From Taibaiella sp. (GTDB taxonomy: Bacteria > Bacteroidota > Bacteroidia > Chitinophagales > Chitinophagaceae): 64,000 bases of DNA. Below the pieces are notes generated by a model. The model saw nothing but the letters and a program-made list of their open reading frames with translations. It did not search any database and was not told where the DNA came from. Position numbers and translations under genes: made by a program. The DNA is taken from positions 18,019 through 82,018 of the forward strand of contig JACDGL010000012.1 of the NCBI GenBank assembly GCA_013815385.1. The letters are read 5' to 3'. Numbering within the stretch: the first letter of the stretch is position 1; each line of letters begins with the position of its first letter. Shown in pieces: positions 2,597 to 51,866 of this stretch.

Positions 2597-5500
2597 ATGA
2601 GGGGATATCTATACTCATTGCTTTGTATAGGTTTGGTAATTGCATTGCCGTACAATACCAAAGCACAAATAACAGCTAATTTCAGCGCCAGCACTACTTC
2701 CGGCTGCTCGCCCATTGTTGTCAATTTTACGGATCTAAGTACCGGTACACCTACCGCCTGGTCGTGGGACCTGGGTAATGGCGCAACCTCTACATTGCAA
2801 AATCCATCCACCACCTACACTACTGCAGGCACCTATACCGTAAAGCTTACTGCAAGCAATGCCTCCTATACTAACACTAAAACAGCTACTGCATACATAA
2901 CAGTACTGGCAGCTCCTGCAATTGCGTTTGTAGCCAGCGACACCGCATCTATTTGCGCACCCAAGGCTATAACGTTTACCAACAATACTGTATTAGGCTC
3001 CTCTGGATCCGGCACCTATACATGGGATTTCGGTGACGGTACAAGCTCTTCTTCCACATCGCCCACCCATACCTATACAACAAGCGGTGTATACAATGTA
3101 ACCCTTGTAGCTACCAATAGCAGTGGCTGTAGCAGCACCCTGGTAAAGTCTTCGTACATCCACCTGAACGCAAAGCCCCACGCGGCCTTTGGCGCATCGG
3201 GTGTGAGCGCCTGTAACGCACCATTTACACCCACCTTTTCTAATTCATCCACCGGAGCGGTATCTTATAGCTGGTCTTTTGGAGATGGGGGCTCATCTAC
3301 ATCTACATCGCCTTCGCATACTTATAGCAGTTCCGGTAACTATACGGTCACATTAATAGCCACCAATAGTTCAGGCTGTAACGATACAGCGGTAAGCGTT
3401 AACTATATCAATGTAAATAATTTTCACGCCGCATTTAGCAAAAGCAGTTCTACGGCATGTATAGGCTCTGTTTATACTTTTACCAATACAACTACTGGCG
3501 GTTATAGTGCATCCGCATGGTATTTTGGAGACGGTACCACTTCCACTTCCGCCTCTCCTACTCATTCTTATGCAGCATCAGGTACCTATACCGTAAAGTT
3601 AGTTGTGCAAAACTCTTCGTGTATTGATTCAACTACACAGACTGTAACTATTAATTCAAACCCCACAGTCGCCTTCACTGCGGACACAACCTTTTTTTGT
3701 CACACGCCAGCGACAGTTCATTTTACTAACACCTCTACCGGCGCCACTTCGTATATATGGTCATTTGGTGATACCGCCACTAATCCTTCCTATACGTTCA
3801 GTAGTACCGCTATATATAATATACGCCTCACTGCCATAAGCAGTGCGGGCTGTAGAGATAGTCTATTCAAAGGCGGGTACATACAATTGCAAGCTCTTAC
3901 TTCCTCCATCACAGCATCGCCTGCCGGCGCGTGTTTATCATCGCCAGTATCGTTTACCACCAGTGTATTGTCATCAACCTTATCCTCTTATCAATGGTCA
4001 TTTGGTGATGGAAGCACTAATAATACCTCGCTTACCCCTTCGCATAGTTATACTACAACAGGCACTTACACTGTAACGTTCACTTACCTTACTACAAGTA
4101 ACTGCAGGGATACAGCCACTACTACTGTAATAGTGAGTACAAAGCCAACTGCAGGTTTTTCCGCGCCCACAGGCCCATTTTGCACCGGCACAACTATAAC
4201 CTTTACTAACAGCTCCACAGGCGCGACCTCCTATAAATGGCTATTTGGTGATGGCGCTACCAGCACCGCTACAAGTCCCAACAAATCTTATACCTATTCT
4301 GACAGTTTTTCTATTACCCTGATCGCATCAAATAACGGGTGTAAAGATACCCTTGTAAAGAGCAAGTATATACCCGTAAAAGGGCCAACGAACGCTTTTG
4401 GTGCTACCATAAATTGCGGTAACCGGCTAAACGTAACTTTCCCTGACTCCTCAACAACAGGTATAACATACAACTGGACATTTGGCGACGGAGGAACATC
4501 CACTTCTTATAGTCCATCACATACATATTCTTCTTATGGCGTGGATACCGTGAGGCTCACTGTATCAGACGGTACCTGTAGTGTAACCCGTAGTTTATTG
4601 CTTGACCTTTTCACGATCAGCTCCGGATTTGCGGCTTATGATAGTAACGCCTGCAAAAATTCAAATATCATATTTGCCTCCCCCTTTACCAAGGGCACAA
4701 GTTACTACTGGGATTTTGGAACAGGGAGCAGCTATGCCGCTACTACATCTAAGGATACTGCCCGATACAGTTATACATCAGCAGGTATATATACAACTAA
4801 GCTGATAGTAACTGATATATACGGCTGTAAAGATTCTACCACTAAATCCAATTATGTGCATGTGGGTGGCCCTAACGTAAATCCAACGGTTTCTAACGCC
4901 TGTATTAACAGCCCCGCACAATTTACAGATTCCACCAATGATGGAGGTAATAGCATTACATCAAGGCTTTGGAGCTTTGGTGATGGTACCACCCTGGGAG
5001 GAAATAATAGCTCACCTACACATAGCTACGCAGTGGGAACCTATGATGTAAAACTGATAGTTACAGATACGCTCGGCTGCAAAGACTCCGCAACAAAACC
5101 TGCTTTGATTAATATAACTACACCTTACAGTGATTTTTATACTGCCGATACTTTAGTATGCCCCGGCCATACGGTATCATTTGATAACTATACAAGTGGA
5201 ACTAGTACGTATTTATGGTCGTTTGGCGATGGCGGTACTTCTACCGGCCGTTTCCCATCACATACGTATACCACCTCCGGTATCTATACGGTAAGACTGG
5301 TCTCAACTTCTAGTGGTGGCTGTATTGATACGGTAACGAAAAGCTCTTATATACGAGTGGGTAATCTGAACCTATCATTTACTATGAGCGATTCCTTTGC
5401 AAGCTGCCCCCCCCTAACTGTTAACTTTACCAATCATTCATCAGGAATTACTTCTTATGCATGGACTTTTGGGAATGGTAGTGTTTCCACATTAACCAAC

Positions 5501-12987: not shown

Positions 12988-13144
12988 CTTATAAAAGTAA
13001 ATTTTAGGTTTTGCTAAACCTAATGAAACGCTTTGCGGGCAGGCATTTCAGTGTATATTATTAATAGCGGAAAATTATTTTAAAAATATTTTTGGAAAAT
13101 TGAAAATCCTGCCATTATCTTTGTACCAGTTCTTTAAAGTAATG

Positions 13145-13258
13145 CTTATCAAGAAAGGCAGAGGGTTATGGCCCTGTGAAGCCTTAGCAACCTCCCCGGC
13201 GAAAGCCGAGAGCTGGTGCTAATTCCATCCTGAAGGAAACAATTTCGGGACAGATAAG
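13145..13258 (+). promoter_or_regulatory. SAM-I (S-box) riboswitch
   Basis: CTTATCAAGAAAGGCAGAGGG..GGCCC..GAAGCC..GCAACC....GGTGCTAATTCC....GATAAG carries the conserved S-box cores. P1 pairs CTTATC with GATAAG. It lies upstream of Met-pathway genes. Confidence 0.9.
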
Positions 13259-13306
13259 TCAGATGCAAAAGTTTGAAAAAGCACGCTCATGCGTTCTACA
13301 TAACTG

Positions 13307-49619: not shown

Positions 49620-49762
49620 GGAATCCGCTAATGGGGAGCAAAGGTAAGCCAAAACTCCAATGTCAGGAATAGAAATGCTTTGCACTTAGCTTACATCTTA
49701 CTATTCGGCATCAGTTGCCACGCTCGCTTGTACGCTCAGTTCGCTGTGCAGCATACAAACAG

Positions 49763-49792
49763 TAAAAAACTCCCCTCTTTTCAAAGAGGGGA
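49763..49792 (-). terminator. hairpin with T-run on the minus strand (terminator at the left edge of the AT-rich island)
   Basis: TCCCCTCT-TTTCAA-AGAGGGGA, preceded on the plus strand by AAAAAA, which is the T-run on the minus strand. Confidence 0.55.
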
Positions 49793-49877: not shown

Positions 49878-49955
49878 ATGGCGGATGTGCACGATAAAGC
49901 GACGAGGAGCTACAATAGGAGCCGGATAAAAGGCAAGAATATAAATGAAAAATAA
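49878..49955 (+). pseudogene. vsr: N-terminal remnant of a very-short-patch repair endonuclease gene (vsr)
   Basis: Hand translation gives MADVHDKATRSYNRSRIKGKNINEK then a stop. The first 11 residues equal the E. coli Vsr N-terminus as I remember it (MADVHDKATRSKNM...). The ORF stops after 25 codons and no dcm or rest of vsr is present. Confidence 0.72.
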
Positions 49956-49996: not shown

Positions 49997-50320
49997 TCAA
50001 ACTTGCGTATTTTTAAATAGTGCTGTGATATCTATATAGCTAGTTTGCTGGTTGCTTTTTGACACGCTCATATATTCATGCCATTCATGGTCTATAGCCT
50101 CATCCCAATATTTCAAATGCAGATCAGGTAAGTTCCATTCCTTAGCATTAAAGTAACAGCCATCTACAAAACATTGTTGTATTCTCCTTTCAATTTCTTC
50201 AAGAGACAATTTTAAGTTATTACTAAATATCACTTCGCCGTAATTCTTATTATTACCTGCATCTCGATACAGGTATTCAAAGCGAATAGATTCAGTTCTA
50301 TTTTCTAAAGATGTGCTCAT
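49997..50320 (-). CDS. hypothetical 107-aa acidic protein, third gene of the HNH cassette
   Basis: The ORF MSTSLENRTESIRFEYLYRDAGNNKNYGEVIF... overlaps the HNH gene stop by 23 nt. By my count it has about 17 D/E against 11 K/R. I recognise no family. Confidence 0.6.
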   Translation of the reverse strand: MSTSLENRTESIRFEYLYRDAGNNKNYGEVIFSNNLKLSLEEIERRIQQCFVDGCYFNAKEWNLPDLHLKYWDEAIDHEWHEYMSVSKSNQQTSYIDITALFKNTQV

Positions 50321-51065
50321 TATGATATTCTAAGAATTCTTTTCTCGGCAAGAATTTATGCGGTTTGATTATTGGCTTTTTGTCTATTGATATGAAGACG
50401 TTTTTAACCGTCAAATTGTTGTCTTTATTCTCGATCTGTTTTGAAACTCTAATCGTAAAATCTGGTAAAATAGTGATAAGCCCACAATCAAATGCCTTAT
50501 CATGAAGGGCATTGATACAAAGGCCATTTTCTGGATTGGTTCTATTCTCTTCATTCTTGCTCCACGGTATTATATGACTTGCGACTTGTAAGGCCGTTAT
50601 TTTCATCCCTGTAATACAACAGGTATTTTCATATGCTGCGAAAACAGCCTTCCTAAAAAAATCCTGATACACTCGGGTTTTTACGAAGCGTCTCCGATCT
50701 GCACCTCTAGGCAATTCCTTTTCGTCAATGTCTAGTACTTGCTCTATAGTCTCGTGTTTGTATTGTGCTATAAGTTCTGTGCTTGTTAAGGTTAACGCAT
50801 TCCAGTTTTCATGAAACTCATTCCATATTTCCTCGTCTAGCTTACTACGGTTAGGCAACCCACCTACATTTCTTCTTCTCAGTTCGGGGTCTAAGCTCCC
50901 GAAGTTGCCAAGTTTACGCGCTACAGCACTTGGAGTTCGTCCAATGATCTCAGCCACTTCTTGCACATTCTTATTACGCGAGTGTGCTTGCCCCCATGGA
51001 ATTTTGCAATACAAGTTGAAGGCAATAATTGTTTGTTCTCGTGTCCAAACATCTTTTCTTGGCAT
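50298..51065 (-). CDS. HNH endonuclease (HNH_2 / COG3183-like restriction-type nuclease) with an N-terminal HTH-like domain
   Basis: 255 aa. QDFFRKAVFAAYENTCCITGMKITALQVASHIIPWSKNEENRTNPENGLCINALHDKAFDCGLITI is the HNH_2 core. N-terminal VQEVAEIIGRTPSAVARKLGNFGSLDP looks like a helix-turn-helix. Confidence 0.85.
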   Translation of the reverse strand: MPRKDVWTREQTIIAFNLYCKIPWGQAHSRNKNVQEVAEIIGRTPSAVARKLGNFGSLDPELRRRNVGGLPNRSKLDEEIWNEFHENWNALTLTSTELIAQYKHETIEQVLDIDEKELPRGADRRRFVKTRVYQDFFRKAVFAAYENTCCITGMKITALQVASHIIPWSKNEENRTNPENGLCINALHDKAFDCGLITILPDFTIRVSKQIENKDNNLTVKNVFISIDKKPIIKPHKFLPRKEFLEYHNEHIFRK

Positions 51066-51068
51066 AAG

Positions 51069-51263
51069 CTAATCTTCTTCAGCTATAAATATATAACTAC
51101 ATGCCTTATTTAAGCAGATGTGCAATTGGAAATCTAATTTGGCGAGGGTTGTTTTTCCTTTAGGAGCTAACCTTTCAATAAAATCGGTTCTGGCTGCACA
51201 ATAAGGGCAGGTAGTTGGCTGGTCACCTATCAAGTAAGTTTTAAGGTCATTTTTCGTTATCAT
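51069..51263 (-). CDS. hypothetical 64-aa zinc-ribbon-like protein, first gene of the HNH cassette
   Basis: The ORF has CPYC (residues 19-22) and C-x4-C (HICLNKAC). It ends 3 nt before the HNH gene start. Confidence 0.55.
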   Translation of the reverse strand: MITKNDLKTYLIGDQPTTCPYCAARTDFIERLAPKGKTTLAKLDFQLHICLNKACSYIFIAEED

Positions 51264-51473
51264 TTGCCAAAGTTACAAAGGTCTCCTTGCGCTGACAATC
51301 GGTTATAAGTGAACTTTTGGCTTTTAAATGTGGATATCTTCCTCTTGGAAAACCCACCTTCTCTATCGTATCTTGCACGTAGCCCATAAAGGCCTAAACC
51401 CATAGAACCGATCCCTATCAAAAATGCAATTTCTATCAGATGTATATTTCCCAGCTTCGTTACACTCCAGGAG

Positions 51474-51741
51474 GCAAACTTCCGTTTTCACCCCAAATTT
51501 CCGCCGGAAGTTTCACCCTTAAACCCCGTACCAGTAACCATATAATAATAACCCCTAACGGAAGTTTGCGGAAGTTTGAGCAGAACCATCGTATAGTTTA
51601 CCGGGTTGCACCAAATTTCCATTCCTACCCACTAAACCCCACCGGAAGTTTGAAACCAAAAACCATCAAACAATCGCCCATGGCTACGCATAATAATCCG
51701 ATCATATTTCTGCTAACGGAAGTTTGCGGAAGTTTCACCGA
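51474..51741. repeat. array of CGGAAGTTT(G/C) motifs: 6 direct copies, 1 inverted copy and 2 inverted near-copies, including two tandem 10-bp doublets
   Basis: CGGAAGTTT occurs at 51505, 51559, 51569, 51643, 51717 and 51727, with an inverted copy at 51476-51484. The 23-nt exact direct repeat CTAACGGAAGTTTGCGGAAGTTT occurs at 51555-51577 and 51713-51735. CCAAATTTCC occurs twice at about 51493-51502 and 51611-51620; its reverse complement is GGAAATTTGG. Confidence 0.85.
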
Positions 51742-51866
51742 AAAGTAGTCAACTGCATGAATACTCTGCCCGCCCTATCCTATCTATCAAAATAAATTTA
51801 TAATTTTGTTTATATAGTTGTTTTTCAGAATGCTATTTATTATATAAAATTTTAAGCTGTTACTAT

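Follow-up and report, generated by a model that had tools for sequence, protein, structure and literature searches.

A three-gene HNH_2 nuclease cassette with two uncharacterised partner families as a candidate restriction-type defence module linked to cytosine-methylation loci

The closest described relatives of the nuclease discussed here are the type IV enzymes VcaM4I (EVE-HNH) and TagI (SRA-HNH), which are single-gene nucleases that usually have no linked methyltransferase (PMC6765204). Moreover, in term-matched passages of a study of paraMORC and two-component-like restriction-modification systems, HNH_2 is given as the commonest nuclease beside Vsr and C5-methyltransferases in the Bacteroidetes and Proteobacteria (bioRxiv 10.1101/2020.08.26.268516, also PMC8011034). 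We analysed a 64,000-nucleotide stretch of Taibaiella sp. (assembly GCA_013815385.1, contig JACDGL010000012.1, positions 18,019 to 82,018 of the forward strand; hereafter the window), in which three packed genes, A, B and C, encode a zinc ribbon, an HNH_2 nuclease and an acidic protein, respectively (Table 1). The HNH_2-type core is common to B, VcaM4I and TagI, and B of the window likewise has no linked methyltransferase. However, VcaM4I and TagI read DNA through a domain of the PUA superfamily (EVE or SRA), whereas the N-terminal half of B is all-helical, resembles a helix-turn-helix (HTH) and has no structural match; additionally, B is accompanied by the separate small proteins A and C, and its family is often found inside operons of C5-methyltransferases (cytosine-5 DNA methylases, hereafter M5). 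Based on the comparative analysis, we propose, with a probability of about 0.45 and hence at slightly less than even odds, that the cassette is a restriction-type and probably modification-aware (type IV-like) defence module that stems from cytosine-methylation loci and is able to outlive them.

A functional unit of A, B and C is supported, because the three genes are co-conserved over deep B clades, occur in shuffled order and are fused to one another. Their joint occurrence, a survey of which was suggested in the first-pass annotation of the window, was followed in two samples: 80 genome loci fetched with the B alignment, whose six-frame open reading frames (ORFs) were scanned by iterated hidden Markov model (HMM) searches and tblastn, and 77 metagenome loci anchored on C. 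The survey bore out the expected co-conservation. A was located directly upstream of B in 16 of the 80 B loci (~20%) and C directly downstream in seven, while all three genes were found together in four, as well as in the window and in its nearest relative locus, L001, whose B is 95-96% identical. In the C-anchored sample, B lay within 1.5 kb of C in 37 of the 77 loci, or in 19 of 37 where both flanks measured at least 1 kb, and A was present in 17-20 of the 77. The gene orders comprised A-B-C, A-C-B, A-C and C-A, and C also occurred in divergent orientation to A-B and in convergent orientation to longer HNH_2 proteins. Fusions were found of A with C (P0173), of C with A (P0203) and of the small partner S82 with C (P0216), and in P0185 the C-terminus of B runs straight into C. 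In a neighbour-joining tree of 115 B proteins, the C-linked copies were distributed over several deep clades. The small partners of B belong to six families (A, C, S82, U82, U79 and U119), all of which were lacking in 27 of the 79 loci used for counting the neighbours of B, including the intact locus L010 (64% identical to B). A and C are families that are new to the libraries and papers searched, and they are tied to B by co-occurrence and fusion. In a word-index homology search, A and C had looked like orphans, with seven matches and one match, because such a search has a low sensitivity for short proteins; this was overturned by tblastn and HMM searches on the loci and by an exhaustive profile search.

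B is likely to be the effector of the cassette, as was first proposed from its HNH_2 core (ASHIIPW...NPENGLCINALHDKAFDCG). It matched the Pfam family HNH_2 (PF13391, COG3440-type) with 39 bits at a cutoff of 21 (E 7e-10), and both this score and the conserved beta-beta-alpha-metal residues place it among the HNH_2 / His-Me finger nucleases. H164, N180, N185 and H188 were invariant in the B alignment (A1), and all 39 columns that are invariant in a 26-sequence family alignment were kept. The AlphaFold2 model of B, with a predicted local distance difference test score (pLDDT) of 91, contains the strands 160-164 and 181-185 followed by a helix at 186-193, while its N-terminal domain is all-helical with an HTH-like helix pair at residues 32-56. 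The closest entries of the PDB, found by both profile search and Foldseek, were VcaM4I (6yex) and TagI (6ghs), and they matched the nuclease part only: in the profile search 6yex was hit with an E of 2e-17 over B residues ~113-213, and the Foldseek probability was 1.00 for both. For the N-terminal domain no convincing structural neighbour was found, with probabilities of at most 0.15 for TetR/LysR-type domains and an E of ~0.02 for trihelix GT-1.

The library scans (Pfam, NCBIfam, PADLOC and PHROGs) identified no named system that corresponds to the three-gene set, in agreement with the initial statement that the combination was not recognised as a named one; B alone, however, matched the PADLOC model PDLC04132 'HNH' with 306 bits (4e-92; residues 2-254 on profile positions 24-273 of 286) and a second one, 'HNH, type II restriction enzyme', with 1e-40, and some sources annotate its homologues as putative restriction endonucleases. 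Among 5.8 billion proteins, 3,224 homologues of B were detected, most of them 251-259 aa long (family length ~253 aa) and distributed over many phyla. Identity to B was 49-96% at 95-100% coverage among the 120 homologues listed, and the family is 50-70% identical across phyla. In phages, B was found in three of 50,697 records, and the PHROGs matches were weak and without an assigned function. B was accordingly not assigned to the phage or mobile homing HNH endonucleases, for which a phage, intron or intein context and NUMOD or similar DNA-binding modules would be expected; a NUMOD1 match was obtained for the S82 part of P0216 only and not for B. It is worth mentioning that a single nucleotide is missing from an A-run in L001 (~3035-3053), which shortens B by 11 residues and takes away its last conserved helix; this represents either a real frameshift or an assembly error.

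A carries CPYC and C-x4-C, and the initial description of it as zinc-ribbon-like was confirmed by its membership in a Cys4 family, in whose alignment (A7) Q15, C19, C22, R25, C50 and C55 are invariant. A had no match in Pfam, NCBIfam or PHROGs and only weak matches to the PtuB models of PADLOC (E 5e-4 to 2e-2), which probably reflect a similarity of zinc ribbons. Septu, which combines the ATPase PtuA with the HNH protein PtuB, was rejected as an identity for the cassette, as these matches are weak and no ATPase occurs in or near it.

C was correctly described as net acidic, with 17 D/E against 11 K/R and an isoelectric point (pI) of 4.96. In the exhaustive profile search with E<=1e-3, its family, which is characterised by the motifs YxYRD..N.K and DHxWHE, yielded at least 1,769 cluster representatives, mostly stand-alone proteins of ~105 aa. 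Near-invariant in its alignments (A2, A4) are Y16, Y18, R19, D20, N23, K25, N34, D77, H78 and E82. The AlphaFold2 model is alpha/beta (pLDDT 80, predicted template modelling score 0.73) and had no match at E<0.1 in the PDB or BFVD by Foldseek; the profile search of the PDB was also empty, as were the scans of Pfam, NCBIfam, PADLOC and PHROGs. No similarity to known immunity proteins was found in sequence or structure. C was absent from the plasmid and phage collections (0 of 50,697 phage records) and occurred in two loci among 2.9 million viral contigs.

The link to cytosine methylation was seen in the neighbourhoods of both B and C. With our own profiles, of which that for Vsr was built from Pfam-verified Vsr neighbours of B, a whole or fragmentary M5, Vsr, HpaII-type or EcoRII-C-type gene was found within 3 kb in 29 of the 79 B loci (37%) and in 23 of the 77 C loci. 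M5 was within this distance of B in nine of the 79, and Vsr, whole or as a fragment, in 13 of the 79 B loci and 13 of the 77 C loci, typically in the order Vsr-A-B-C; most B loci had neither. The genes linked to 5-methylcytosine (5mC) were scattered over the whole B tree. Pfam placed C5-methylases upstream of B, HpaII-family nucleases downstream and Vsr just upstream of A or B. Intact operons were observed as M5-B-S82-HpaII (L037) and as M5-B-C-EcoRII-C (L005, L150), in which M5 and B overlap, and the operons with M5 and B usually also hold a separate nuclease of the HpaII or EcoRII-C type. Fragments were frequent as well: M5 and HpaII neighbours of B were often incomplete, the HpaII fragments downstream of B being of many sizes, and a truncated M5 adjoins B in L033, L056, L058, L061, L084, L086 and gonococcal NgoAXIII. 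In L033, L056 and L061, the 3' end of M5 is joined to B after an internal deletion of M5.

Fragments of M5 flank the B cassette in L056 (4985-7464) and L058 (5216-8376), the N-terminal portion of M5 preceding it and the C-terminal portion following it, which suggests that in these loci the cassette may have entered a methylase gene that was already present, or recombined with it. In three further loci (L034 1250-6759, L055 1541-6768 and L052 1286-6768), overlapping genes encode M5, a large protein of 719-863 aa, a mid-size protein of 297-437 aa and B. A sequence search of the PDB with the large protein of L034 gave no match. These operons are probably candidate paraMORC or two-component-like restriction-modification systems.

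In the window itself, the trace of such a neighbourhood is a relic of vsr, in which the first 22 codons (MADVHDKATRSYNRSRIKGKNI) at 49878-49943 are followed by NEK and a stop codon. A full-length Vsr domain (PF03852) has ~140 aa, and the relic is a fragment of it, a pseudogene that converges on C. This layout equals that of L050, where A-B-C precedes an intact convergent Vsr; the relic is absent from L001. No M5, HpaII or EcoRII-C relics were detected in the island of the window, vsr being the only one. The description of the cassette as an orphan without partners, which was given in the first-pass annotation, thus stood in its local part, in that no methyltransferase, ATPase or helicase was found nearby, but not for the family, since 29 of the 79 B loci have 5mC genes and the window holds the vsr relic. 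The linkage of B to a methyltransferase, which had been named, if constant, as the sign of a plain decayed type II system, was borne out in part by these 29 loci and the relic, but B does not always adjoin a methyltransferase, M5 being within 3 kb in nine of the 79.

C is also found without B. Its neighbours are then UvrD-like helicases, DUF2075/Schlafen-type helicases, which are ~660 aa long and frequently come with an XRE regulator, an HNH protein of PF01844 that likewise has an XRE regulator beside it, or a PLD-ResIII-DUF3427 protein; examples of the last three kinds are L145 2696-5297, L163 184-2584, L117 3998-5306 and L092 1674-5209. Judging from these neighbours, several restriction-like effectors seem to share C as an accessory. 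Conversely, other lineages have four more small acidic families in tight coupling with B, namely S82, U82, U79 and U119 (L054 6747-6995, L073 2359-2607, L048 5747-5986, L026 5655-6014 and L071 3428-4000). U82 consists of two sub-domains, which are fused in L071.

The three ORFs on the minus strand are separated by a 3-nt spacer between A and B and overlap by 23 nt between B and C. Their integrity and packing, the quoted motifs and the terminator, all of which had been described from the sequence alone, were confirmed by the ORF list, two hairpin tools and an independent gene caller, which predicted the same three genes on the public assembly, a metagenome-assembled genome of Taibaiella sp. The terminator-like hairpin follows C at a distance of ~200 nt. 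In the comparison of the window with L001, the ratios of nonsynonymous to synonymous substitution rates (dN/dS) of A, B and C were 0.26, 0.07 and 0.36, respectively; the three genes are therefore under purifying selection and evolve as proteins. Synteny between the two loci comprises the MerR gene, the intergenic region, A, B and C, and the similarity stops exactly at the stop codon of C.

Table 1. Features of the cassette and its immediate surroundings (window coordinates)
Feature	Position	Strand	Description and evidence
Gene A	51069..51263	-	64-aa Cys4 zinc ribbon; C19, C22, C50, C55; motif DQPTTCPxCGxR ... CLNxxC
Gene B	50298..51065	-	255 aa; HTH-like all-helical N-terminal domain ~9-144; HNH_2 beta-beta-alpha-metal core ~149-207
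Gene C	49997..50320	-	107-aa acidic alpha/beta protein; motifs YLYRDAGNNK, DHEWHE; large uncharacterised family
vsr pseudogene relic	49878..49955	+	Vsr profile E = 1e-5, model positions 1-22; translation
Intrinsic-terminator-like hairpin and T-run	49762..49792 (hairpin 49771-49792)	-	9-bp stem, 4-nt loop; inverted-repeat I8 and terminator scan
Intergenic region between A and divergent MerR/B12-binding gene	51264..51866	.	603 bp; presumed cassette promoter site; seven AAACTTCCG copies

The G+C content is 0.38-0.40 at 50-52 kb and ~0.49 in the flanks. Within +/-10 kb of the cassette, Pfam identified only housekeeping genes, including an LpxH-like phosphoesterase, a SixA-like phosphatase, the MerR/B12 regulator and a protein sorted by the type IX secretion system; no methylase, ATPase or helicase and no GHKL ATPase or receiver-like gene was found in this range. 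The profiles for M5 (the methyltransferase class profiled being C5), HpaII-type and EcoRII-C-type genes had no match in the whole 64-kb window, and the cassette is not accompanied by an integrase, a transposase or convincing terminal repeats. Among the 4-nt palindromes of the window, CCGG is over-represented most (observed/expected 1.23), and CCWGG has a ratio of 0.87, so neither shows a signal of avoidance. CTAG is strongly rare in the window as a whole (observed/expected 0.20).

The intergenic region upstream of A is 89% identical in L001 and contains seven exact copies of AAACTTCCG at 51476-51735, compared with 0.23 expected and none elsewhere in the window; six are on the minus strand and one is on the plus strand, with two tandem pairs, and five of the seven are intact in L001. 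As a feature of the cassette these repeats were rejected, since no A-B-C locus apart from the window and L001 has them; they may serve the light/B12-type MerR regulator as operator sites, or else represent an element specific to this lineage. No convincing excess of sigma-70 promoters was found in this region. Elsewhere in the window, at 13143-13260 on the plus strand, there is an S-adenosylmethionine (S-box) riboswitch with 75 bits at a gathering score of 44.

In the proposed reading, B would be the effector, with its HNH_2 core and its own helical HTH-like DNA-binding domain, and A and C would be accessory subunits that work with each other and with B in specificity, sensing or restraint. 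The ancestral and still frequent home of the module would be a locus with M5, Vsr, (A) B (C) and an HpaII- or EcoRII-type nuclease, and the copy in the window would be an orphan that has lost its methylation partners and retained the vsr relic. Its mode of action would be a type IV-like or modification-aware cleavage of foreign DNA, which complements or outlives a type II system. That B cuts DNA and serves in defence, and what A and C do, we infer from these comparisons. The type IV-like mode is favoured because the core of B is like those of VcaM4I and TagI, B persists without a methylase, C has DUF3427 and DUF2075 partners and the family is cellular. An adjacent cognate methyltransferase, which is typical of type II systems, was not found in the window either with the C5 profile over 64 kb or with Pfam within +/-10 kb; the frequent occurrence of B without a linked methyltransferase makes it a poor fit to a classical type II enzyme. 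The absence of a linked methyltransferase, which is usual in type IV systems, holds for the window and for most loci, with M5 in nine and any 5mC gene in 29 of the 79. The fused reader domain of type IV enzymes (EVE, SRA or sulfur-binding), however, was not detected in B.

Several observations weigh against this proposal. No modification-reader fold (EVE, SRA or the sulfur-binding domain SBD) is detectable in B or C, and the match of B to the NCBIfam model PT-DNA_restrict (67.6 bits) is far under its cutoff of 180. Operons in which M5 and B are intact and translationally coupled are hard to reconcile with an enzyme that depends on 5mC, unless the two have different sequence contexts, and, as many M5 and HpaII neighbours are fragmentary, part of the 5mC association may be due to decay or to insertion of the cassette and not to cooperation. 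The pI of B is basic (9.1; family median 8.5) and its small partners are all acidic (median pI 4.6-5.3), which fits an inhibitor model too. Enrichment near known defence genes, a test of which had been proposed in the first-pass annotation, proved only modest: among 135 neighbours of B there were three Vsr, five Fic, four Zeta, two UvrD/GajB-like and two DRT genes.

The opposite charges of B and all six partner families are the starting point of a toxin-antitoxin or abortive-infection explanation, which we consider unlikely, in which B would be toxic and held by the acidic C, possibly with A as a DNA-binding autoregulator, until it is freed by infection or by loss of the labile inhibitor. The tight coupling or overlap of the genes would suit such a system, as would the A+C and S82+C fusions, which are reminiscent of antitoxins composed of a DNA-binding module and a second domain; moreover, C is sometimes divergent from an operon of an XRE regulator and a nuclease, which is the slot of the protective gene in restriction-modification systems. 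However, the 27 partner-free B loci, among them L010, speak against it, and the association of C with unrelated effector folds would be unusual for a specific inhibitor. The invariant Y, R, D, N, K and H of C are typical of a binding or active site. The colicin-like toxin-immunity pair that had been put forward in particular was not borne out: B is not a colicin DNase, and the analogy is weak because the pairing is not obligatory, C has unrelated effectors and its residues resemble a binding or active site. A remnant of a type II restriction-modification system, in which B would be, or would once have been, the cognate enzyme of a lost C5-methyltransferase, and A and C leftovers of an incidental or controller-like kind, is also unlikely and ranks behind the toxin-antitoxin explanation. 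It would account for the match to the PADLOC type II model, the overlap of M5 and B in many operons, the truncated M5 genes beside B and the vsr relic, and it would agree with the reported prevalence of HNH_2 in C5-methyltransferase/paraMORC systems, as far as the passages cited above go. Nevertheless, the operons with M5 and B usually have a separate HpaII or EcoRII-C nuclease, and B of the window is intact and strongly selected with no methyltransferase nearby, where an unprotected type II enzyme would kill its host or decay. A and C show conservation of their own and occur as fusions with each other, and CCGG and CCWGG are not avoided.

The proximity of Vsr could also mean that B, with A and C, aids Vsr in very-short-patch repair of the T:G mismatches that arise from deamination of 5mC, an explanation we regard as improbable. 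The genes dcm and vsr of E. coli overlap, and in the M5-B-C-EcoRII-C operons B fills the slot that vsr occupies after dcm; in addition to the Vsr-A-B-C loci counted above, the gonococcal locus keeps a functional Vsr together with B, while its methyltransferase is truncated. B as a general replacement of Vsr was rejected, since an intact Vsr adjoins B in many loci. As for a role as a helper, most B loci lack both M5 and Vsr, the window has kept A, B and C but only a decayed vsr, and C also occurs with helicase and nuclease effectors that are typical of defence. The least probable explanation, which we consider very improbable, is a selfish mobile cassette that invades C5-methyltransferase and restriction operons in a homing-like and disruptive manner with no benefit to the host. 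It would be in agreement with the M5 fragments that flank B in L056 and L058, the internal M5 deletions, the variously sized HpaII fragments downstream of B, the gonococcal B that stands in place of most of the methyltransferase and nuclease, the low G+C content and the synteny with L001 that ends exactly at the stop codon of C. On the other hand, free-standing homing HNH genes are common in phages and B is essentially absent from them; terminal repeats, integrase and transposase are lacking; intact M5-B-C-nuclease operons have conserved overlaps; and the level of identity across phyla noted above does not fit such an element.

Returning to the reading of a type IV-like defence module, the cassette appears to be a credible and well-delimited candidate, one of many candidate defence modules. 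If this reading is correct, the nuclease would be joined by two families that had gone unnoticed, one of which, C, would serve other restriction-like effectors too. The common annotation of a stand-alone 'HNH endonuclease', which applies to thousands of genes including one of N. gonorrhoeae, would then describe part of a modular system, and A, C, S82, U82, U79 and U119 would join the defence-associated accessory proteins. The module would also offer a handle on how methyltransferase-free restriction nucleases are targeted or kept safe and why they are found near 5mC and Vsr genes. A broader proposal, to which we give only tentative and rather doubtful standing, is that C together with small DNA-binding partners (A, S82, XRE) forms a widespread, previously undescribed and trans-acting accessory module for restriction-type effectors, either as a new reader of modified or foreign DNA or as a methylation-independent factor of self-protection, with one unrecognised example in the gonococcal NgoAXIII-type family. 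In either role, type IV-like defence systems with several subunits would form a class that is new.

Apart from VcaM4I and TagI, the cassette can be compared with several described systems. Colicin E-type HNH DNases with their immunity (Im) proteins likewise consist of a basic HNH protein followed by a small acidic protein. However, HNH_2 is not the colicin DNase, B has no translocation or receptor domains, its pairing with C is not obligatory and C joins non-HNH effectors; Im proteins have a four-helix fold, whereas C is predicted to be alpha/beta and has no structural match. To our knowledge, no small C-like partner has been described for the McaZI-type enzymes. DUF3427 and DUF2075 were connected with modification-dependent restriction, and a type II nuclease together with a C5-methyltransferase was sometimes found next to the McaZI-type DUF3427 enzymes and DUF2075 NTPases (PMC6765204). 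The logic of the neighbourhood is the same, a putative modification-dependent nuclease beside a C5 restriction-modification pair, and members of the C family adjoin DUF2075/SLFN helicases and a PLD-ResIII-DUF3427 protein, but the effector folds differ from that of B.

The L034, L055 and L052 operons resemble the paraMORC-type systems, as these are described in the term-matched passages of bioRxiv 10.1101/2020.08.26.268516 and of Iyer et al. 2008 (PMC2292703), in their overlapping M5, large, mid-size and B genes. By comparison with the same passages, the window differs in having no methyltransferase, GHKL ATPase or receiver-like gene, and A and C are not mentioned in the term-matched passages of these papers (PMC8011034 and PMC2292703). 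Neither the A-B-C set nor an HNH linked to Vsr was found described in our literature searches. The NgoAXIII locus of Neisseria gonorrhoeae contains a B homologue of 249 aa with 44% identity over 97% of B, in the order pheS, Vsr (V.NgoAXIII), a 133-aa M5 remnant, a small ORF, the B-family HNH and pheT (L169 3950-5741, NZ_CP119142.1; the accession is a chromosome filed among plasmids). Previously, only the Vsr and the truncated methyltransferase of this locus were described (10.1101/630434), and 'HNH' is absent from the text of that paper. In meningococci, the pheS-pheT site is occupied by the NmeDI system. The gonococcal locus differs from the window in that its small ORF is unrelated to A and C and its Vsr is intact, compared with 22 codons in the window. 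Taken together, B is a nuclease of a known kind, for which a PADLOC model exists, and none of the libraries and papers searched describes families A and C or their fusions, the A-B-C (Vsr) arrangement or the promiscuous pairing of C.

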